From the NCBI GenBank assembly GCA_016179865.1, contig JACPCJ010000106.1, positions 8,950 through 72,949 of the forward strand: 64,000 bases of DNA. The letters run 5' to 3'. Shown here piece after piece: positions 2,776-44,193 of the stretch. Made by a program: the position numbers and the translations under genes. Origin of the DNA: Actinomycetota bacterium (GTDB lineage: Bacteria > Actinomycetota > Acidimicrobiia > IMCC26256 > JACPCJ01). Numbering within the stretch: position 1 is the first letter of the stretch; the number at the start of each line of letters is the position of its first letter. Under the pieces are notes generated by a model. It was not told the origin of the DNA. It made no database searches and was given only the letters and a program-made list of their open reading frames with translations.

Positions 2776-3633
2776 GTGCGACGTCGTGAACGAAATCAGT
2801 TCGAAGCCAAGCCCAAGGAGCCGGGCGGCCGGCGGGTACGAGGCGCCGTCGCCGCCATCGTCCTGGCGTCGGTCGGAGCCGTGGGGCTCGTGACCTTCGT
2901 CAAGGGCGCCGAGGACCGCGCCCTGGCCGGTGAGCGCTTGGTCACCGTCTTCGTGGTGAAGGACCGCGTCGAGGCGGGGACGCCGGCCGAGGAGATCAAG
3001 GGCCACGTTCGCACTGAGCGTGTTCCGGCCAAGGTGCGCGCCCGCGGAGCCGTCACCGACATCGAGAGCCTCGGAGGCCGGGTGGCGAGCGTCGACCTCG
3101 TGGCCGGCGAACAGGTGACCGTCGAGCGGTTCATCTCTCCTGAGGTGTTCGGCCGCACCGGTGGCCAGGTCGACATCCCCGAGGGCAAGCTCGAAGTCAC
3201 CGTCTCGCTCGAGCCGCAGCGGGCCGTGGGCGGCGTGCTGCGGCCCGGGAGCACGGTGGCGGTGCTGGCGTCGTTCGAGCCCTTCGACGTGTCGGGCGGC
3301 ACCGACGTCGACGGTGCGTCCGTCCCCGCGGGGGGCAAGACGCCGAACTCCACCCACCTCATCCTCCACAAGGTGGTGGTGACCAACGTGCAGTCGGCCC
3401 AGACCTTCAGCTTCGGGATGGGCGAGGGTCAATCGGGAGCCGGGGCAGACGAGGACGGCGAGACCGCTCCGGCGCCGTCGGAAAGCCTGCTTGTGACCAT
3501 GGCGCTCGACGCCCCCGCTGTCGAGCAGGTGGTTTTCGCCGCCGAGCACGGCACGGTGTGGTTGGCCATCGAACCGACTGACGCCCCCGAGGAGGGGACC
3601 CGCGTTCAGACCAGAGGGACGATCTACGAATGA
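2776..3633 (+). CDS. cpaB: Flp pilus assembly protein CpaB/RcpC (SAF domain)
   Basis: N-terminal TM helix, SAF-like region, AVGGVLRPG motif; position in tad operon. Confidence 0.88.
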   Translation: MRRRERNQFEAKPKEPGGRRVRGAVAAIVLASVGAVGLVTFVKGAEDRALAGERLVTVFVVKDRVEAGTPAEEIKGHVRTERVPAKVRARGAVTDIESLGGRVASVDLVAGEQVTVERFISPEVFGRTGGQVDIPEGKLEVTVSLEPQRAVGGVLRPGSTVAVLASFEPFDVSGGTDVDGASVPAGGKTPNSTHLILHKVVVTNVQSAQTFSFGMGEGQSGAGADEDGETAPAPSESLLVTMALDAPAVEQVVFAAEHGTVWLAIEPTDAPEEGTRVQTRGTIYE

Positions 3634-36583: not shown

Positions 36584-37569
36584 CGGGGATGGAGGCCGGA
36601 GCCTCGTTCCCGGTCCTCACGTTCGGCGGCGGCCACGCCGTAGCCGATGACCATCGACGGCAGCAGGCTGACGCTGGCCACCACGAGGCAGCCGATGATG
36701 GCCGAGATGGTCCAGGCTGGGAGGTCCCAGTACAGGGCGACGCCGAAGAGCAGGACGGCCAGGGCCAGGGCGCCGAAGCCGACCCGCCGTCCCGTCTCCG
36801 CCCAGGCCGCGTAGCGAGCGCGCTGGACCGTGATGCGATCGGATGATGCGGCACGCCCCGAGGTCAGGTGGCGAGAGAGGGCTTCCAGAGCGTCGGCCAC
36901 CTCGCGGGGCGCCACAAGCATGTGCAGGTGCCCAGCGTCGAGGCTGACGACCCGCCATCCCCGTCGCCCGGCGGAGGAGGCGGCGTCCTCGTAAGCGGCC
37001 GAGAGCAGCAGGTAACCGCACGGCGCGTCCGGGAACGACGCCGGCACGGCGATCGGTTCCTCGAACAGCCGGAGGGGGAGTGGCTCCAGTTCTTCCGCGA
37101 ACCGGTCGCGCAAGGTCTCGTCGGGAACCAGGGCGGCGAGCACGGCGTCACTCCACCACTCCGCCCAGGGCGGGACCCGCCCGTCTGCGGCCAGGCCGCG
37201 GATCCGCTGAACGGACTCCGGTGGCGCGTCGTCGAACCGAGTGGCCCGGTTCACCGGCAGCCCGGCGTCGACGAAGACGTAACCGACGACCGGGTTGGTC
37301 AGGGTGTCCCCGGCGGCGGGCAGCACGGCCCCCGCCCCCGAGTGACCCACCAGCACGACCGGTGCCGTCCGGCTGTGGGCCTCGACGGCCTGGCGAACCT
37401 GCTCGGCGTGGTGGTGCAAGAGGGTGCCGGGGGTGGAGTCGGGGTTGTCGAGGCGGGGGAGCACGACGTCGTGGCCGCGCCGACGCAGCTCCTCAGCCAC
37501 GAGCGTCCACGTCAGCGACCCGACGAGCGGGCTGTGCACGAGCACGAAGACGGGGGCGTCTAGGGCCAT
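36577..37569 (-). CDS. Alpha/beta hydrolase fused to a C-terminal 2-TM domain
   Basis: LVHSPLVG, GHSGAG nucleophile, GHLHM catalytic His, then two hydrophobic helices. Confidence 0.8.
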   Translation of the reverse strand: MALDAPVFVLVHSPLVGSLTWTLVAEELRRRGHDVVLPRLDNPDSTPGTLLHHHAEQVRQAVEAHSRTAPVVLVGHSGAGAVLPAAGDTLTNPVVGYVFVDAGLPVNRATRFDDAPPESVQRIRGLAADGRVPPWAEWWSDAVLAALVPDETLRDRFAEELEPLPLRLFEEPIAVPASFPDAPCGYLLLSAAYEDAASSAGRRGWRVVSLDAGHLHMLVAPREVADALEALSRHLTSGRAASSDRITVQRARYAAWAETGRRVGFGALALAVLLFGVALYWDLPAWTISAIIGCLVVASVSLLPSMVIGYGVAAAEREDRERGSGLHPRS

Positions 37570-38651
37570 GTCCACCCGGCGAGATCGAAGAGTTCCTGGA
37601 GTCGGCCGGGGAGCAGTTCCAGCGCAAGGTGCCGGCGGGCGACATCGAGGTTCTTCTCCAGCGTCGCCGACTCGTCGCGCATCCCGATGAGCACGGCGGC
37701 CAGGGTTTCGGGGTCCGATGCCGACAAGAACTCGAAGCCCAGCCCGCGCAGCTCATCCATCACGGGGTAGTCACCGGCGGCGAGGGGCCGCCGGTGGGCG
37801 ACGGACTCGATCACGGGGTTGCCGAACCCCTCCCACGTCGAGGGGAAGGCGACGAGATCGCAAGCGGCGTAGGCATCACCGACGGGTTGGGCCGCGGCGC
37901 GGATCACCCCGACGCGGGTGCCGCGCAGCAAGTCGTCGAGGAGCGGCCCGTATCCGTCTTCGGCCGGGCCGGGGAGCCAGTAATGGATCCGGTGTCCGGG
38001 CAGGCGGGTATCGAGGGCGGCGCACAGGGCGAGCGCCCCGGGCACGTTCTTGCGGGCGATGGCGCGCACCGGGTGCAGCACGAGCAGGTCGCCGTCGTCG
38101 AGCCCCAGCGCCTCCCTCGTTTGGTCGCGGTTTCCCGGAGGCGGGTCGAGGTCGAAGTGGTTCCGCACCAGGTGTGCGGTGATCCCCCGGTCCCCGAGCT
38201 CTCGGCTGGACAGCTCGTTGATGGTCACGTGGAGGGCGTGCTCGAGGCGGGGCGGGAGCTCGTCGACGTGCTCGTATTCGGCCCGCTGCCACGGGAGGTC
38301 GTGGTGGCGGAGGATGACCCGACCGTGCGTCGCGATGACCTTCGCCACGACCCGGGCGGCGGGAAGGTTGAGGGGGAGCGACAGAAGGTTCTCGACGACG
38401 ACGAGGTCGGCTCCCTCGAGGGCGGCCTCCACGGCGACGGGGGGCGGGTCCACGTTCCCATCCGGTCCCCTGGGAAGGGCCAGCTCGGGGACGATGGCGT
38501 CGTCGCGCCGCCCTCCATCGAGGATCTCGCCGGCCAACCGCCGGGTGCGAAAGCCGAGTGTGGCGAGCGCGGACTCCCACTTGGCGGCCTCGACGGAGAC
38601 GCCGTCGGTGCCGCCGAGGCGGAACGAGACGAACACCGCCGTGGGGGCCAC
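37560..38651 (-). CDS. GT4-like glycosyltransferase
   Basis: GGTDGVSVEAAKW, HHDLPWQR, RAIARKN and PSTWEGFGNPVIE motifs. Confidence 0.88.
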   Translation of the reverse strand: MAPTAVFVSFRLGGTDGVSVEAAKWESALATLGFRTRRLAGEILDGGRRDDAIVPELALPRGPDGNVDPPPVAVEAALEGADLVVVENLLSLPLNLPAARVVAKVIATHGRVILRHHDLPWQRAEYEHVDELPPRLEHALHVTINELSSRELGDRGITAHLVRNHFDLDPPPGNRDQTREALGLDDGDLLVLHPVRAIARKNVPGALALCAALDTRLPGHRIHYWLPGPAEDGYGPLLDDLLRGTRVGVIRAAAQPVGDAYAACDLVAFPSTWEGFGNPVIESVAHRRPLAAGDYPVMDELRGLGFEFLSASDPETLAAVLIGMRDESATLEKNLDVARRHLALELLPGRLQELFDLAGWTWP

Positions 38652-38671
38652 GGGACGACGATAGAGCGGAG

Positions 38672-39340
38672 CTACCCGAGGCGGGGAAGGCGGCGGTTGA
38701 TGGCGTCGAGCACGGCCTTGGCCACCGCCTCTTGCTCCTGGTGGAGCCGCACCACGGCCGAGCCGGAAATGATCTGCTCCTCCGGCGGTACGACGGCGAC
38801 CACCGTCACCACCGCCACGTCGTTGATCCCGACCCGCACGATCTGCGCGCTGTCGACGTCGAGGCACTCGGCGGCGGGGACGAGCTGGCGCAGCGCGTCG
38901 AGCGTCGCCGCGCCCACGAGGCGGTGGCGCGCGGTCGAGGCGATGGTTCCCTCGGCGAAGCCCACGGCCTCGATCTCTTCAATGGCGAGCGTGACGCGGA
39001 CGAGGGTGCGCAGGCCCGAAGCCTCCGCGGTGATGCCCGTGATGGCCGGGCGTGGTGACACGCCGGCGTCGGGCTCGCGCTCGTCGGTGACCTGATCGCT
39101 CTCGAGTTGTACGACCGAGACGATGCGACGGTCGAGGTCGAGGCCGAAGCGAGCCAGCGCCACCGATTGGATGTCGCGCACGATCTGCTTCGCCGGCTTG
39201 CCGGGGCGCGCCAGCACGTGCACTTCGGTGGGCTGCTCGCCCTCGCCCACGATGCGCACGCCCGTGACGTCGGGCAGCCGACACAGCGCCTGCTCGACCT
39301 CCTCGAGGTCCACACCTCCCGTGCCCTCCGCGCCCTCCAT
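38672..39340 (-). CDS. Conserved hypothetical cytoplasmic protein, divergent from the peptide/HD-GYP genes
   Basis: EVHVLA...KQIVRDIQSV...RIVSVVQ and AVAKAVLDAINRR motifs; start could be 39355, 39340 or 39313. Confidence 0.8.
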   Translation of the reverse strand: MEGAEGTGGVDLEEVEQALCRLPDVTGVRIVGEGEQPTEVHVLARPGKPAKQIVRDIQSVALARFGLDLDRRIVSVVQLESDQVTDEREPDAGVSPRPAITGITAEASGLRTLVRVTLAIEEIEAVGFAEGTIASTARHRLVGAATLDALRQLVPAAECLDVDSAQIVRVGINDVAVVTVVAVVPPEEQIISGSAVVRLHQEQEAVAKAVLDAINRRLPRLG

Positions 39341-39858
39341 ACGTGTTCGGAGCATAGGGGTCGCGCGCGCAGCGTGAGGGGACGCCCAGAAATCACCCCG
39401 CAATCCTGAGGTGTGATCATGAAGGTCACGATGCGTGGCATTTCCCCAATGCGGCGGGAGTCCATGTCCGAGAAATTCTCGGGAACCACTTGATTCGCGG
39501 CCTCCGAACCGCTTGACTCTCCATTCACCGCATCGACGGCAACGGATGGATGCGGGCGGAGTGGGCCTGTTCGGGCCCAGGGCCTGGCCACCAAGACGCT
39601 GGCTCGGCGCGCCACCCACGCGAACCACGGGGGTGGGGTGCCGGACGGCAGGGAGGTGCGCGGGACACGAAGCGGATGAGCTTGACAACCTGACGCGCCG
39701 CGGATCGCCGCGGGCGGAGCCGGCAGGGCCTCGCCCGGGCCCCCGTTTCGGATTCGATATGAACCGATTCGGTGTGCCCGGAGCGGAGCGGACCCCATAC
39801 CAGCGGAGCGGATTGCCCCCACACGCAGGGAGTGATCAACCGCCAAGGAGGGGTGTCC

Positions 39859-39948
39859 ATGAGAACAGCCTTCGTCCGGCTCGCAGCCGTAGCGACGGTA
39901 ATCGTGGCTTCCCTTGCCACCGGTGGCCTCGGCTACCGGTGGGAGTGA
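39859..39948 (+). CDS. Small 29-aa peptide, putative signal precursor (not in the ORF track)
   Basis: SD AAGGAGG at 39845-39851, ATG 39859, TGA 39946-39948; MRTAFVRLAAVATVIVASLATGGLGYRWE. Confidence 0.75.
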   Translation: MRTAFVRLAAVATVIVASLATGGLGYRWE

Positions 39949-39982
39949 CGGGAGAGGTCGTCGCATCTCATCGCCCACACCA

Positions 39983-40029
39983 ACTTGGTTTCTCTTCTGC
40001 GCTCTGGTGTGAGAAACGAAACCAAGTTC
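39983..40029. repeat. Hairpin, REP-like family B
   Basis: AACTTGGTTTC...GAAACCAAGTT; a related copy lies inverted at 61331-61377. Confidence 0.75.
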
Positions 40030-40084
40030 CTGGGATGGGCTGAGAGAGGGAAGCATACCGTCACAGCGCTGGTATCTGGCGGGT

Positions 40085-41389
40085 GTGACGGCCACCGCAG
40101 GGGTCGTCGCCACGTTCATCGCGCGCGCGGGAATTTCCAATATGGAAGCCTTCGCGACCTTCGCTCTGGTTGCCATGGGAGCCGAGCTGATCAGCGTCCG
40201 GCTTCCGAATGGCGCCACCGCATCCGCGCTCATGGTGCCCGTGATCGCCGCCGTATACGCCCTCGGCGTCGGCGGCACGTACTGGGCCGGCGCCCTGGTC
40301 GCCGCCTTCGGCGGGCTCTACCTTCCCGACCTTCGTGGCGCCCGCTTCGATCGGGTCATCTTCAACAGCGCCATGCTGCTGCTCGCCGGAACGGGGGCGG
40401 CCGCCGTCTTCGCCGTGCTCGACCCCGCCGCGCACCCGTCGGTGCCCGCGTTCCTTTTCGCCACCGTGCCCGCCGGCCTCGTGTTCCTCGGCCTCAATGT
40501 GGCGCTCTTGGTGCCGATGCTGGCCCTCGACCAGGGTCGGCCGGCGCGCGAGTTCCTCGCCAGCCTGTCGCCCTTCCACGCGCAGTACATCCCCTTTGCC
40601 ATCATCGGCACCGGCCTGGGGTGGGTCTACCTGGTGACGGGGCCGCTCATCATTCCGTTGGCCGTTGCGCCGGTGCTCGTCGCCCGCCAGACCTTCCGTT
40701 CATACCTGGCCCTGCGTGACGCCCACGAGCAGACCCTTCGGACGCTGGTGCGCACGCTGGAACGCAAGGACCCGTACACGGCCGGGCACGTCGAACGGGT
40801 CGCCACGTACGCCCGCTACATCGGAGAGGAGCTCGGCCTCTCTGAGATCCGCCAGGAGCGGCTCCGGTACGCGGCGCTGATGCACGACGTCGGCAAGCTG
40901 GTGGTCTCCAATCACCTCCTGCGCAAGCCCGACCGCCTGACCGCCGAGGAGTACGAGCGGGTACGCCTGCATGAGGCGGTGTCGGTCGAGCTCCTGCGCC
41001 GGATCGACTTCCTGCGACCGATCGCCACGTCGGCTTCGCCCCGCTATGCGCGGTACGACGCCCGCGGGCCGACCGATCCCATCGAGCCCTACGTGATCGT
41101 GGTCGCCGACGCCTACGACGCCATGACCTCGACCCGCCCCTACCGCCGGGCTCTGCCGCAGCCGGTCGCCTTCTCTGAACTCCGTCGGCACGCGGGCACC
41201 CAGTTCCACCCGGCCTGCGTGGAGGCCCTCATCCGGGCACTGGACCGGCGCGAAGAACGCCACGGGCTCGGCCACGAGGAGCAAGTGGTCGTCTTCGACA
41301 CCGAGCCTCCCGTGCGGGGCCCCGGCTCGGCGGGTCTCGGTGACCTGGCTCCGAACGCGCCACCCCGCGTGCCGGAGCGTCACGCGTGA
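40085..41389 (+). CDS. Membrane-bound HD-GYP-family protein (multi-TM sensor + HD domain)
   Basis: About 6-7 TM helices, then KDPYTAGHVERVA, HDVGK, DAYDAMTSTRPYR and AGTQFHP; the HHE/GYP segment is degenerate. Confidence 0.9.
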   Translation: MTATAGVVATFIARAGISNMEAFATFALVAMGAELISVRLPNGATASALMVPVIAAVYALGVGGTYWAGALVAAFGGLYLPDLRGARFDRVIFNSAMLLLAGTGAAAVFAVLDPAAHPSVPAFLFATVPAGLVFLGLNVALLVPMLALDQGRPAREFLASLSPFHAQYIPFAIIGTGLGWVYLVTGPLIIPLAVAPVLVARQTFRSYLALRDAHEQTLRTLVRTLERKDPYTAGHVERVATYARYIGEELGLSEIRQERLRYAALMHDVGKLVVSNHLLRKPDRLTAEEYERVRLHEAVSVELLRRIDFLRPIATSASPRYARYDARGPTDPIEPYVIVVADAYDAMTSTRPYRRALPQPVAFSELRRHAGTQFHPACVEALIRALDRREERHGLGHEEQVVVFDTEPPVRGPGSAGLGDLAPNAPPRVPERHA

Positions 41390-42648
41390 GTACCACGCAC
41401 ATCTCGGTTTCGCCGGCGCGCCGCGTCAGCGACCCCGGTGCACCGCGCCTGCGCGCCGACGTTTCGCTCGTTCTGGCGCTCGCCGCCCTGGTGGCGGTCA
41501 CGGTCGCCCTCACCACGACCGGCGACTGGGGCCGGGTGGCAGCCCTCGGCGCGGCGCTCGTGGTTGGTGAACTGCTGGTGGTCGAGCTCATGGACGAGAC
41601 CACCCTTCCACTCTCGCTGATGGTGCTCGTGCCGCTCGTCGCCGAGGCGGGCCTCGCCCCCACGCTCCTCGCCACCGCCGGAGCCACGGGCGCCGCCGCC
41701 ATCCTGGCTCGCCACGCGTCGCTCCGGAGTTGGGCGTCCACCGTGGGGGCGAGAACCACCACCGCCGCCGCGGCGTGGGCAGTCTTCTGGGGCGCGGACC
41801 GCCTCCTCCGGGGGGGCGGCGGTCTGGCGGCGTCGGCGCTGCCGGCCACGGCTGCGGCGGCGTCGCTCCTCGCCCTGGTACTTGCCGAGCGGCGGCTGCG
41901 GCGGGCGGGGTCCTTCCACGGCGCCCGCGGCCACGGCGCCTTCTTCGCCGTGGCGGCGAGCGGGGTGCTCACGGCGATCGGCAGCGCCGGGGTCGACGGG
42001 CGGGGCGGCATGGGCCTGTGGGCCCTGGTCGTCTTCGCCGTCCCCGCGCTCTCGGCGAGGTGGGCCTTCGGTCGTTTGCACGCCATCCGGCGGACGTACG
42101 ACCAGACCATCGACGTCCTTTCCGTGGTCCCCGAGATGGGGGGCCGGGCCCGCCCCGGCCACTCTCGCCGCGTCGCCGAGCTGTGCGTCGACACGGGTCG
42201 GATGCTTGGCCTCTCGGCTCCGGCGCTCGAAGACCTGGAGCGTGCCGCCCTCCTGCACGCGCTCGGATCGGTGACGTTCGACGATCACGATCCTCCCGGA
42301 ACCTCCCGCGGGCCCCGTGAAGTCGCGGGCGCGACGGTCGGCGTGCTGGCCGACGAGGAGCGTCTCTCCCGCCCGGCCGGCCTCGTGGCCGGGATGGCGG
42401 GGGAACCGGTCACCCTCACCGACGAGGAACTTCTGGCGGCCCGCGTGCTCAGAGCGGCGGCGTCCTTCGAAGAAGTGGCCGGCGGCGACCCGTCGCGGGC
42501 CCGGCTGGCGCTGGCGACGACGATCGAGCTCGGCGGGTCGGCTCGCCCGTCAGGTCGCCCGTCAGCTCAAGACGGGACTGACCGACGAGTCGTGGCCGCC
42601 CTGGCCCGCGTCGTCACCCGGCGGGCCCTCGTGAGCCATCGCGGGTAG
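41386..42648 (+). CDS. Second membrane protein with a degenerate HD-GYP-like domain
   Basis: Multi-TM N-terminus, GHSRRVA, ALLHALG (HD replaced by HA); GTGA overlap with the upstream gene. Confidence 0.75.
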   Translation: MSTTHISVSPARRVSDPGAPRLRADVSLVLALAALVAVTVALTTTGDWGRVAALGAALVVGELLVVELMDETTLPLSLMVLVPLVAEAGLAPTLLATAGATGAAAILARHASLRSWASTVGARTTTAAAAWAVFWGADRLLRGGGGLAASALPATAAAASLLALVLAERRLRRAGSFHGARGHGAFFAVAASGVLTAIGSAGVDGRGGMGLWALVVFAVPALSARWAFGRLHAIRRTYDQTIDVLSVVPEMGGRARPGHSRRVAELCVDTGRMLGLSAPALEDLERAALLHALGSVTFDDHDPPGTSRGPREVAGATVGVLADEERLSRPAGLVAGMAGEPVTLTDEELLAARVLRAAASFEEVAGGDPSRARLALATTIELGGSARPSGRPSAQDGTDRRVVAALARVVTRRALVSHRG

Positions 42649-43188
42649 CCGCCCACCTCGTCGCCGCGGCGGGCGGGACGCCCGGAAGATCACGTCGAGA
42701 AGGCCCACGCCAAGGATCAGGTCGCCGAAGCTGATCGCCCGGTCGATCGGCTCGGGCAGGAGCACGATCTGGCCCAGGGAGCGCAGGGCGGCGGCGTCGT
42801 TCTCGGGCACGTGGGTGACCGACTCCTCGAGCTCGCGCATCCGGACGTCACTGGCATCCTCGGGCAAACGCGTTGGCATGCCGCCGTTGACGGCGACGAC
42901 CAGGGTGTTGAGCGCCACACCGATCAAGACCACCGACATGCCCGTGAGTCGGAGGTTCCGGGCGCAGAACACGACGAGGGCGCCGTAGGAGCCGAGGTAT
43001 ACGGCCAGGCCGGCCGACTCGGGCCAGCCGTCGGTTGGAGACCAGAGGCCGAGGGCGAGTTGGGCTGCGAGGGCGAGTGGCGGGAGGACGATCCAGCGCA
43101 CCCGAGCGTCGGCCAGACGCCCAAGGCGGCCTTGGCCGACCACTGCGGTGCAGGCGCCGAGCGCGATCGCCACGGCGATCAGTTCCAA
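42562..43188 (-). CDS. DUF5317-like membrane protein
   Basis: GRLGRL...W, NLRLTGM, GVALNTLVVAVNGGMP, H...LG and SFGD motifs; likely TTG start at 43188. Confidence 0.8.
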   Translation of the reverse strand: MELIAVAIALGACTAVVGQGRLGRLADARVRWIVLPPLALAAQLALGLWSPTDGWPESAGLAVYLGSYGALVVFCARNLRLTGMSVVLIGVALNTLVVAVNGGMPTRLPEDASDVRMRELEESVTHVPENDAAALRSLGQIVLLPEPIDRAISFGDLILGVGLLDVIFRASRPPRRRGGRLPAMAHEGPPGDDAGQGGHDSSVSPVLS

Positions 43189-43361
43189 TTTGCCTTGCTC
43201 CCTCGGCTGTTCCGGCCTCGCTCGCCTGTCGCCGGGCCTCCTTCGGGGTCCCCGCCCGGCGCCAATTTGCCTTGCTCCCTCGTCCGTTCCGGTCTCGCTC
43301 GCCTGTCGCCGGGCACCCCTCTGTCGCCGGGCACCCCTGAGGGGTCCCCGCCCGGCGCCAA
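43185..43361 (-). repeat. Two tandem copies of a ~77-bp dispersed repeat (third copy at 62837-62910)
   Basis: CCAATTTGCCTTGCTCCCTCG...GGGGTCCCCGCCCGGCG occurs twice; the second copy has an 18-bp internal duplication (43303-43320 and 43321-43338). Confidence 0.85.
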
Positions 43362-43401
43362 CAGCCACCGTACCGCCGGCGTCTCTGATAGATACGGACC
43401 C

Positions 43402-44193
43402 GTGACTGACGATGCGAGTGCCGAGGTTCTATACGCCGTCGACGGCGCAGTGGCGCGAGTGACGATCAACCGCGAGGAACGCCGCAACTCGATGTCGTAC
43501 GGCGTGATGACGGGCCTGCGAGAGGCGATGGCGAGCGCGAAGGCCGACGACGCCGTTCGGGTGTTGGTGCTGACGGGGGCGGGCGAGAAGGCCTTCTGTG
43601 CCGGGGCCGACCTCGGGGGGATCGGGGAGAACCCGAGCGCGGCCGACGTCCACGAGGGGCGGGGAGAACTCGCGGCGCTCTTCCGTGACATGTGGTCGCT
43701 CGGCAAGCCGACCGTTGCTCGGGTGCGGGGCTACGCCCTGGCCGGGGGGTTCGGTCTGGCGCTGGCGTGTGACTTCGTGATCGCGGCCGACGACGCCCAG
43801 TTCGGCACCCCCGAGATCGACGTCGGCCTGTGGCCGTACATGATCACCGTGCCCCTGCTCCGCTCCATGCCGCCCAAGAAGGCGCTGGAGCTGATGATGA
43901 CCGCGCGCCGGGTCGGTGCCACCGAAGCGGAGCGCATCGGGTTCGTGAACCGGGTGACCCCGGTTGATGAGCTCGACGGCGCTGTCGACGAGCTGTGCGC
44001 CACCCTCGCTTCGAAGTCGCCGGTCATCATGCGCTGGGGTCGCGACGCCTTCTACCGAGTGCTCGACATGACCGCCGACGACGCCCTCGCTTACCTCCAG
44101 CCCATGCTCTCGGTCACCACCTACACCGAGGACACGGCCGAGGGCATCGCCGCCTTCGTGGAGAAGCGCCCTCCGGAGTGGAAGGGCCGCTAG
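43402..44193 (+). CDS. Enoyl-CoA hydratase/isomerase
   Basis: AFCAGADL, GYALAGG and FGTPEIDVG motifs. Confidence 0.92.
   Translation: MTDDASAEVLYAVDGAVARVTINREERRNSMSYGVMTGLREAMASAKADDAVRVLVLTGAGEKAFCAGADLGGIGENPSAADVHEGRGELAALFRDMWSLGKPTVARVRGYALAGGFGLALACDFVIAADDAQFGTPEIDVGLWPYMITVPLLRSMPPKKALELMMTARRVGATEAERIGFVNRVTPVDELDGAVDELCATLASKSPVIMRWGRDAFYRVLDMTADDALAYLQPMLSVTTYTEDTAEGIAAFVEKRPPEWKGR

Follow-up and report, generated by a model that had tools for sequence, protein, structure and literature searches.

Gram-positive bacteria use peptide signals in systems such as Agr (AgrB/AgrD/AgrC), the Phr pentapeptides, ComX/ComQ/ComP and SHP/Rgg, and the small single-pass membrane proteins MgrB and SafA regulate PhoQ. 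The membrane sensor domain MASE9 (PF20972), which has no known ligand, was defined by Galperin and Chou; in the available part of that work HdgA is its only studied member, ligand binding within the membrane is proposed, the outer loops are described as short and poorly conserved, the domain is also found joined to GGDEF-EAL modules, and section 5 gives HHExh(D/N)GxGYP as the definition of HD-GYP domains (10.1101/2021.11.05.467447). Known MASE9-HD-GYP proteins include HdgA/HdgB and Thermotoga maritima TM1467. In Streptomyces venezuelae the hdgA-hdgB operon (vnz24090/vnz24095) encodes an intact membrane HD-GYP protein and a degenerate second copy, both membrane-bound; in the portions of the papers at hand mutants of this one studied pair show no phenotype, the authors suspect that activating signals are missing, and no small open reading frame (ORF), DUF5317 protein, divergent gene or RNA leader is mentioned (PMC6205966, PMC13232838). 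Here we describe a related locus at positions 38,672 to 43,188 of a 64,000-nucleotide stretch of Actinomycetota DNA (contig JACPCJ010000106.1; hereafter the window, in genome G000, which is 70% complete), in which an RNA leader and a 29-codon ORF precede two membrane-HD genes, and which also holds genes for a DUF5317 integral membrane protein and for a divergent conserved protein, DIV.

Like hdgA-hdgB, the window pair is an operon of a membrane HD-GYP-type gene and a degenerate second copy; unlike HdgA/HdgB, the first HD domain too is without the HH and GYP residues. With Agr-type systems the locus shares a membrane-targeted short precursor, a candidate membrane enzyme, a multi-pass receptor and a C-terminal tail that varies and is about five residues long; it differs in having no ring-forming Cys and no acidic C-terminal recognition tail, in its enzyme and receptor families, in a processing enzyme that is dispensable in some lineages, and in RNA leader control. 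AgrD carries a ring-forming Cys/Ser and an acidic C-terminal tail, whereas the tail here is short and terminal, and the window peptide has no Pfam or NCBIfam match. As with MgrB and SafA, a hydrophobic product of 25-35 residues is associated with a membrane sensor, with feedback from the sensor's own messenger in some loci, although here the product is encoded beside its target, has a dedicated candidate enzyme and an RNA-plus-protein leader, and faces MASE9 rather than a PhoQ-type kinase. As far as the available text goes, the nearest printed precedent is the Clostridioides difficile CD1980.2 family, made up of small proteins that associate with the membrane and whose genes stand downstream of riboswitches for cyclic di-guanosine monophosphate (c-di-GMP); compared by description only, its members have 58 residues against 23-46 here, with no reported link to MASE9, an HD-GYP neighbour or DUF5317 (PMC13724677). 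A literature search that reached few subscription papers found none describing the gene set or the RNA leader, none on DUF5317 and a single relevant one on MASE9.

The reading that we prefer, tentatively and at somewhat less than an even chance, is that an RNA-gated membrane micropeptide is the cognate regulator of the neighbouring MASE9 sensor, with DUF5317 as an accessory. The RNA leader and DIV would set the amount of micropeptide made; the micropeptide would insert in the membrane, bind its cognate MASE9-like domain and switch the sensor output; and DUF5317, as a membrane enzyme, would trim or clear the hydrophobic peptide form. Translation, binding, cleavage, recognition of the RNA by DIV and the direction of regulation are the parts of this model that we infer. 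The module offers a candidate ligand for MASE9, a candidate processing enzyme, a predicted structured RNA with no counterpart in Rfam and a protein that may be the partner of this RNA. An exported peptide would act as a signal to c-di-GMP enzymes and kinases across no fewer than four phyla; one retained in the membrane would rank among the most widespread micro-protein regulators known.

The ORF is conserved, and the MASE9-like sensors that it neighbours carry output domains of three kinds. The N-terminus of the window peptide is basic; it is followed by an uncharged core of hydrophobic residues (hydropathy of the best 13-residue stretch 2.48), then by G-G-L and lastly by five tail residues, Trp among them. 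A peptide profile was built from 23 peptides picked by eye in 40 DUF5317 loci of a phylum sample, leaving out the window peptide, and was applied under a fixed rule to 40 held-out order-level loci; 32 of these have a MASE9-like gene, and 27 of them gave a peptide in the expected position, against none of the 8 that lack the gene; three off-position ORFs reached 9-10 bits. Among the 13,655 small ORFs of G000 with a Shine-Dalgarno (SD) sequence the window ORF ranked first by a narrow margin (7.5 bits, the next 7.0), and no peptide was found in 30 control loci around LspA. A motif scan of named genomes yielded 120 loci, 40 of them chance matches kept as controls; among the loci of at least 5 kb, a peptide was present in 15/48 true DUF5317 loci against 0/29 chance-pattern loci, and these peptides come from Clostridia, Thermus, Chloroflexota and Gaiellaceae, with looser rules giving more. 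An earlier note on this DNA had reported five ORFs, including the divergent gene and the 29-codon ORF with its SD; all five were found again in their places, and its expectation that a small ORF would recur beside such genes is borne out across phyla. Some tallies in this work take in the unpublished genomes G001, G018, G048, G088, G120, G148, G174 and G255, none as the sole basis of a claim, and the loci L012, L016, L027 and L134 contributed to profiles or backgrounds, with no claim resting on them alone.

Between the window peptide and its nearest relative, in L073, the proportion of synonymous differences (pS) is 0.37 and that of nonsynonymous differences (pN) 0.09, more distant pairs being near saturation; the window peptide thus appears to be under purifying selection, and the 29-codon ORF, judged from its sequence and conservation, is a real gene. 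Across phyla the peptides retain the hydrophobic core, the G-A step and the aromatic tail, including at loci without the RNA leader described below. G-A occurs near the C-terminal end in 75/84 peptides, followed in 66 of those 75 by a tail of 4-6 residues (median 5); Trp lies within the last four residues in 52/87, and Cys at any position in 7/87, the window peptide having none. These counts support the ending that the earlier note had anticipated, G(G/A)xxxW. In the set of 87 peptides L148_1218, L163_1293 and L080_9882 are probable false members, excluded from the alignment, pN/pS and tail counts though still in profile PEP2. The peptide gene is tandemly duplicated in L038, L040, L055, L060, L273, L280 and L268, the largest array being that of L060, with as many as four copies belonging to two types. 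A general terminator-like hairpin 3' of the peptide was not seen, a z of -2 or lower occurring in only 15/76.

At a threshold of 15 bits or more, 98/190 loci hold 108 peptides. Of these, 76 are encoded on the same strand as a MASE9-like gene and upstream of it, 11 run divergently from such a gene, 13 stand ahead of DUF5317 and the last 8 are placed otherwise. Since the 11 divergent ones point away from the sensor gene, a role as leader ORFs is ruled out for them. In the phylum sample of 201 genomes the MASE9-like profile is matched in 130 and DUF5317 in 77; in 40 sensor-bearing genomes without a PF17248 match, a custom DUF5317 profile likewise found nothing in 37 (E 0.1) and gave partial matches in the other three. 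At sensor loci away from DUF5317, the canonical peptide is present in 15/20 from genomes that bear DUF5317 against 4/38 from genomes without it. A small ORF nevertheless lies 130-400 nt before the sensor in 22/38 loci of the DUF5317-less genomes, counted by a loose rule written after viewing them, and in some of these families it keeps the hydrophobic core without G-G-A. Since a small ORF persists before MASE9 where DUF5317 is missing, the link between peptide and sensor is the more basic one, with the canonical peptide shape following DUF5317; a genome may hold several peptide-sensor pairs and usually one DUF5317. In eight Chloroflexota loci (L148, L156, L161, L163, L164, L201, L206, L218) the peptide immediately precedes DUF5317, the flank being free of MASE9-like genes, and it carries G-A-P or A-A-P and longer tails that are Gly-rich or contain Cys. 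In the DUF5317-less families of L286, L288, L293-L297, L277 and L287, the peptide ORF directly follows another gene, the end of which resembles what we take to be a ribosome hibernation factor.

The membrane domains of the two window HD proteins are homologous to each other (profile-profile E 2.6e-40). PF20972 itself was matched by 35/56 aligned homologous membrane domains at E 0.01 or better; the first window sensor gave no direct match, and matched at 5.3e-49 a MASE9-like profile whose building had included the window protein. This first protein retains E, H, HD.GK and D in its HD domain, and the second has HA. The motif HHExh(D/N)GxGYP is absent from both, as it is from 28/28 order-level loci, whereas it is present in 78/83 other loci; among Bacillota and in the majority of other lineages the sensor output is, by sequence, an intact HD-GYP phosphodiesterase domain. 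With the HH/GYP motif lost in both HD domains of this order, hydrolysis of c-di-GMP becomes doubtful, and for the pair here binding of a nucleotide or of a partner is more likely than c-di-GMP hydrolysis of the usual kind. The seven GGDEF matches in G000 indicate that c-di-GMP is probably made by the host of the window. Sixteen MASE9-like fusions to domains other than HD were listed, and the 13 scanned comprise six GGDEF-EAL proteins and seven histidine kinases, with a peptide nearby in 12 of the 13. MASE9-like domains thus also occur on histidine kinases, beyond the HD-GYP and GGDEF-EAL partners, and because these make up 7/13 of the fusions the sensor output is not always c-di-GMP.

In loci with DIV, an RNA leader precedes the peptide: AGCG occurs twice, then once more within the loop of a hairpin, and the SD follows. 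This leader covaries and co-occurs with DIV. A simple pattern search over 144 loci found DIV together with the motif in 52, DIV only in 15, the motif only in 7 and neither in 70, and the third AGCG word falls within the hairpin loop in 32/50 sequences, where shuffling of the arms predicts 8.7. RNAalifold on a plain MAFFT alignment gave no pairs; in an 8-bp stem then set by hand from the alignment and tested, 63% of cells are paired against 48.9% when shuffled (0/500), and covariation is 0.303 against 0.157 shuffled and at most 0.201 in slid controls. A covariance model (R1) matched 19/22 DIV-positive and 0/71 DIV-negative held-out loci at E 0.05 (one at 0.051), and two DIV loci without a sensor gene, which stand outside both counts, gave no match. 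The model scores 36 bits in the window, whose copy is part of it. Across 121 genomes 30 were matched; DIV is present in every one of the 28 whose E lies below 1e-5, although 22 of these had contributed to the model, and absent from the two weak matches. No regulon was seen, with one strong copy in G000 and a single copy in 28/30 positive genomes. A long-range helix of at least 12 bp closes around the leader and ORF in 37/51 DIV loci and in 8/22 other loci (cross-locus controls 21.6%, shuffled 11%). Searches of Rfam 15 gave no match in 38400-43600 at E up to 5, no relevant match in L177 at E up to 10, and none at gathering score in the scanned DIV loci. At four loci without DIV, a c-di-GMP riboswitch takes the place of the leader (c-di-GMP-I-GGC in L155, L158 and L197; c-di-GMP-II in L187). 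In Bacillota the parts follow one another on one strand as DIV, RNA, peptide, MASE9-HD-GYP and DUF5317; such an intact module is found in Thermosediminibacter litoriperuensis DSM 16647 (L210), and Thermus, here represented by L165, includes T. thermophilus with matches to both PF17248 and PF20972. The joint occurrence of DUF5317 with the HD pair and the divergent gene in other genomes agrees with the earlier note, which did not have the RNA leader and its tie to DIV; both are added here.

Several smaller observations concern the region before the peptide. A second RNA-model match (E 0.003) lies in L034 at 3236-3309, directly downstream of the DIV gene and on its strand. About 30 nt before the RNA 5' arm there is a TTGA(C/A)AAC(C/T)G-like word in the window (39680-39697), L046, L049, L053, L064 and L073, which could belong to a promoter or be an antitermination signal of the boxA kind. 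At the DIV-less loci L058, L075, L076, L038, L047, L055 and L060, GCCGA(T/C)A words, noted by eye, often precede the peptide and look like what we take to be sigma-28/WhiG -10 boxes.

The DIV model (predicted local distance difference test, pLDDT, 90.7) suggests two domains. Residues 96-219 resemble the regulatory domain of LeuA (Foldseek 1sr9, E 1.2e-5) and align with 3f6g over 109 residues (VIA Z 9.0, root-mean-square deviation 3.1), a match that exceeds unrelated rows, themselves aligned to the other domain of DIV, by just about 1 Z; residues 6-81 form a small fold like the C-terminal domains of ZnT/CzcD (Z about 8). The LeuA allosteric domain binds a branched-chain amino acid at its dimer interface. 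DIV shares the fold of this LeuA/citramalate synthase domain, and differs in standing alone, in its fused small N-terminal domain and in having no catalytic barrel. LeuA_dimer was matched by 2/35 DIV homologues. A PDB sequence search with DIV was empty and the ESM Atlas returned unnamed clusters only; a dsRBD or uS5 fold was considered and dropped, as these appeared only as weak rows in the fold searches. Ten Lys/Arg columns are conserved, six of them in the N-terminal domain.

A close homologue of the window DUF5317 protein is labelled Acidimicrobiia, the class to which the host probably belongs. The DUF5317 family keeps N78, G90, N94, G155, D156 and G162 invariant in 81 sequences, and H126 in 61; position 140 is Asp in 75/81, Gln in four (including the window and L073), Glu in one and Ser in one. 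In the predicted structure (pLDDT 88.5) both acidic positions flank a beta-hairpin before the last helix. Signal peptidase II has a catalytic Asp pair flanking a beta-hairpin before its last helix, and DUF5317 resembles LspA in its four hydrophobic segments, a G-x3-N in the third, and two Asp 16 residues apart; in a profile alignment with 29 LspA sequences, at a score within the range of shuffles, both Asp are in register. Signal peptidase II substrates carry a lipobox Cys, whereas the window peptide has none, and G000 has a separate true LspA. LspA was not listed in fold searches with DUF5317, which gave only generic helical matches (best Z 6.7 over 54 residues); a PDB sequence search was empty, and the ESM Atlas had no usable named match. 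A peptidase role for DUF5317 is a reasonable guess, and the copy in the window may be weakened. As a correction to the earlier note, the first of the two candidate catalytic Asp of the family (D140, 75/81; D156, 81/81) is Gln in the window. In the window and L073, Gln at this position coincides with Leu in place of the conserved Ala of the peptide, an association seen in two close kin.

The coordinates of the locus are collected in Table 1. The two membrane-HD genes are joined by a GTGA overlap, suggestive of translational coupling, and the DUF5317 gene and the 3' end of the second HD gene overlap by 87 nt. The peptide and DIV have no Pfam match, and NCBIfam names none of the five locus proteins. 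Neither a sigma-70 promoter nor a terminator was found in 39300-40200.

Table 1. Features of the locus, in window coordinates.
Feature	Position	Strand	Remarks
DIV (divergent conserved protein, 222 aa)	38672..39340	-	no Pfam match; fold and co-occurrence evidence; N-terminal small alpha/beta domain and C-terminal domain of LeuA/citramalate-synthase regulatory fold; predicted RNA-leader binder
RNA closing helix, 5' arm	39716..39733	+	kept in relatives, where the helix lies around leader and peptide ORF
AGCG-repeat RNA element	39777..39854	+	two AGCG words, hairpin with a third in the loop, then SD
29-aa micropeptide ORF	39859..39948	+	SD AAGGAGG at 39845-39851
Strong hairpin between peptide and first sensor gene	39982..40028	+	17-nt arms, z -3.37; not aligned in relatives L072-L074
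First membrane-HD gene (HdgA position)	40085..41389	+	MASE9-like domain and HD-GYP-derived domain; HD_5 70.7 bits
Second membrane-HD gene (HdgB position)	41386..42648	+	degenerate HD, HA for HD; HD_5 21.4 bits, below cut-off
DUF5317 integral membrane protein	42562..43188	-	TTG start; PF17248 63.6 bits (cut-off 25)

A number of observations weigh against the proposed micropeptide regulator. Synteny inherited among kin inflates all of the co-occurrence counts. Under the strict rule 5/32 held-out MASE9 loci have no peptide, 13/108 peptides precede DUF5317 and not MASE9, and no peptide is recognisable in L033, L034 and L036, where DUF5317, DIV and a weak RNA element are all retained. In two DUF5317-less families the ORF product is charged and amphipathic, with no membrane-spanning helix. 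A complex prediction with residues 1-211 of the sensor membrane domain and a 31-residue in-frame form of the peptide scored 0.37 against 0.00 for the best of three controls, with at least 71% contact agreement between runs and a partner pLDDT of at least 56; this is a weak pass, for the mark is reached by 116/157 solved and 2/215 mismatched pairs, and at 0.60 or below are found only 18/157 of the former and both mismatches. Folding peptide and sensor together, which the earlier note had put forward, thus lends the pairing some slight support. The window has Gln in DUF5317 at the position of the family Asp, and HHalign of DUF5317 against LspA gave a score of 19 (E 0.027) where shuffles reached maxima of 18.3 and 21.2 and the reversed profile 21.1. 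On the RNA side, the tested stem had been chosen by eye on the same alignment, and in the window copy the 5' arm and the AGCG words survive while the loop AGCG and closing helix are degenerate: the helix is of 10 bp and elsewhere placed, with a degenerate 3' arm and no good partner right after the peptide stop. Binding of the AGCG element by DIV is predicted from co-occurrence and the conserved Lys/Arg columns, and the best fold matches of DIV bind amino acids or metals, not RNA.

The same evidence can be read in other ways. The earlier note had proposed Agr-like quorum sensing. On this reading DUF5317 would cut after G-A and release the 4-6 residue tail, which would activate the MASE9 sensors of neighbouring cells in a density-dependent manner. 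The signal-peptide-like shape of the peptide with its variable tail fits such an arrangement, as do the two conserved Asp of DUF5317, in register with LspA though not significantly, the usual single DUF5317 serving several peptide-sensor pairs, and the canonical shape that accompanies DUF5317. We nonetheless hold it to be unlikely, because the ORF is kept in families in which DUF5317 was not found (37/40 genomes without a match at E 0.1), the c-di-GMP riboswitches before the peptide at four loci point to intracellular feedback, and the window combines D140Q with a peptide that apparently remains under purifying selection; the short and poorly conserved outer loops of MASE9, as described in the available text, also speak against it (10.1101/2021.11.05.467447). 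The DUF5317 protein has no match to AgrB at E 0.1, no AgrB was found in G000 at its 70% completeness, and the window peptide has no Cys. The Agr reading is only partly supported: no AgrB or AgrD feature was found, DUF5317 is not required for the peptide system, given a small ORF that persists without it and three DUF5317 loci that lack the peptide, and c-di-GMP cannot be taken as the general output, with histidine kinases in seven of 13 other fusions and both HD domains degenerate in this order, neither of the two in the window carrying the motif expected from the HD-GYP-like character suggested earlier. A bolder combination, also rather unlikely in our judgement, would make DUF5317 a new intramembrane aspartic peptidase that frees a pentapeptide, MASE9 the family of receptors for such peptides whether its output is HD-GYP, GGDEF-EAL or a kinase, and DIV a ligand-sensing RNA-binding switch acting on the AGCG leader as c-di-GMP riboswitches do elsewhere.

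Other readings dispense with the peptide as a signal. It might be incidental, the translation of a small ORF serving to open the long-range helix and so to couple or attenuate the sensor genes; the ORF does lie inside the closing helix in 37/51 DIV-positive loci, 76/108 peptides are upstream of the sensor on its strand, and in some lineages the peptide sequence drifts freely. Such a leader device is distinctly unlikely, however, with 11 peptides transcribed away from the sensor and 13 before DUF5317, with a core, G-A and aromatic tail kept across phyla even without the AGCG leader and pN well under pS, and with a window that has lost the closing arm yet kept the peptide. Were the peptide instead a subunit or substrate of DUF5317, MASE9 would sense a DUF5317 product, for example a modified lipid or peptide, and not the peptide itself. 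This would suit the 13 peptides directly before DUF5317, several of them in Chloroflexota with no MASE9-like gene in the fetched flank, and the way in which the canonical shape tracks DUF5317, but it is made improbable by peptides that stand beside MASE9 genes far from DUF5317 (15/20) and persist where DUF5317 was not found. Finally, a short basic-hydrophobic peptide within a long-range helix recalls the mRNAs of type I toxins, in which case a membrane-damaging product would be silenced by 5'-3' pairing and be unrelated to the sensor; a single copy in G000, the linkage of 100/108 peptides to MASE9 or DUF5317 genes, the riboswitches at four loci and the lack of any antisense RNA match in Rfam leave this extremely improbable. 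The micropeptide as cognate regulator of the sensor thus remains the reading that we favour, with the reserve expressed above.

Some further features of the window lie at the margins of the locus. The frame of the first sensor gene stays open 5' of its GTG (region 40044-40085), and its true, weak start may be an in-frame ATA at 40055 that comes after a GAGAGGG word and lies inside a predicted hairpin. At 43185-43361 an imperfect tandem repeat with units of about 77-96 nt spans the start and SD of DUF5317 and the gap to an enoyl-CoA hydratase gene, and resembles a recent local duplication or a small repeat element. Directly downstream of DIV, at 37560-38660 on the minus strand, lies a gene for a family 4 glycosyltransferase that is like mannosylglucosylglycerate synthase.

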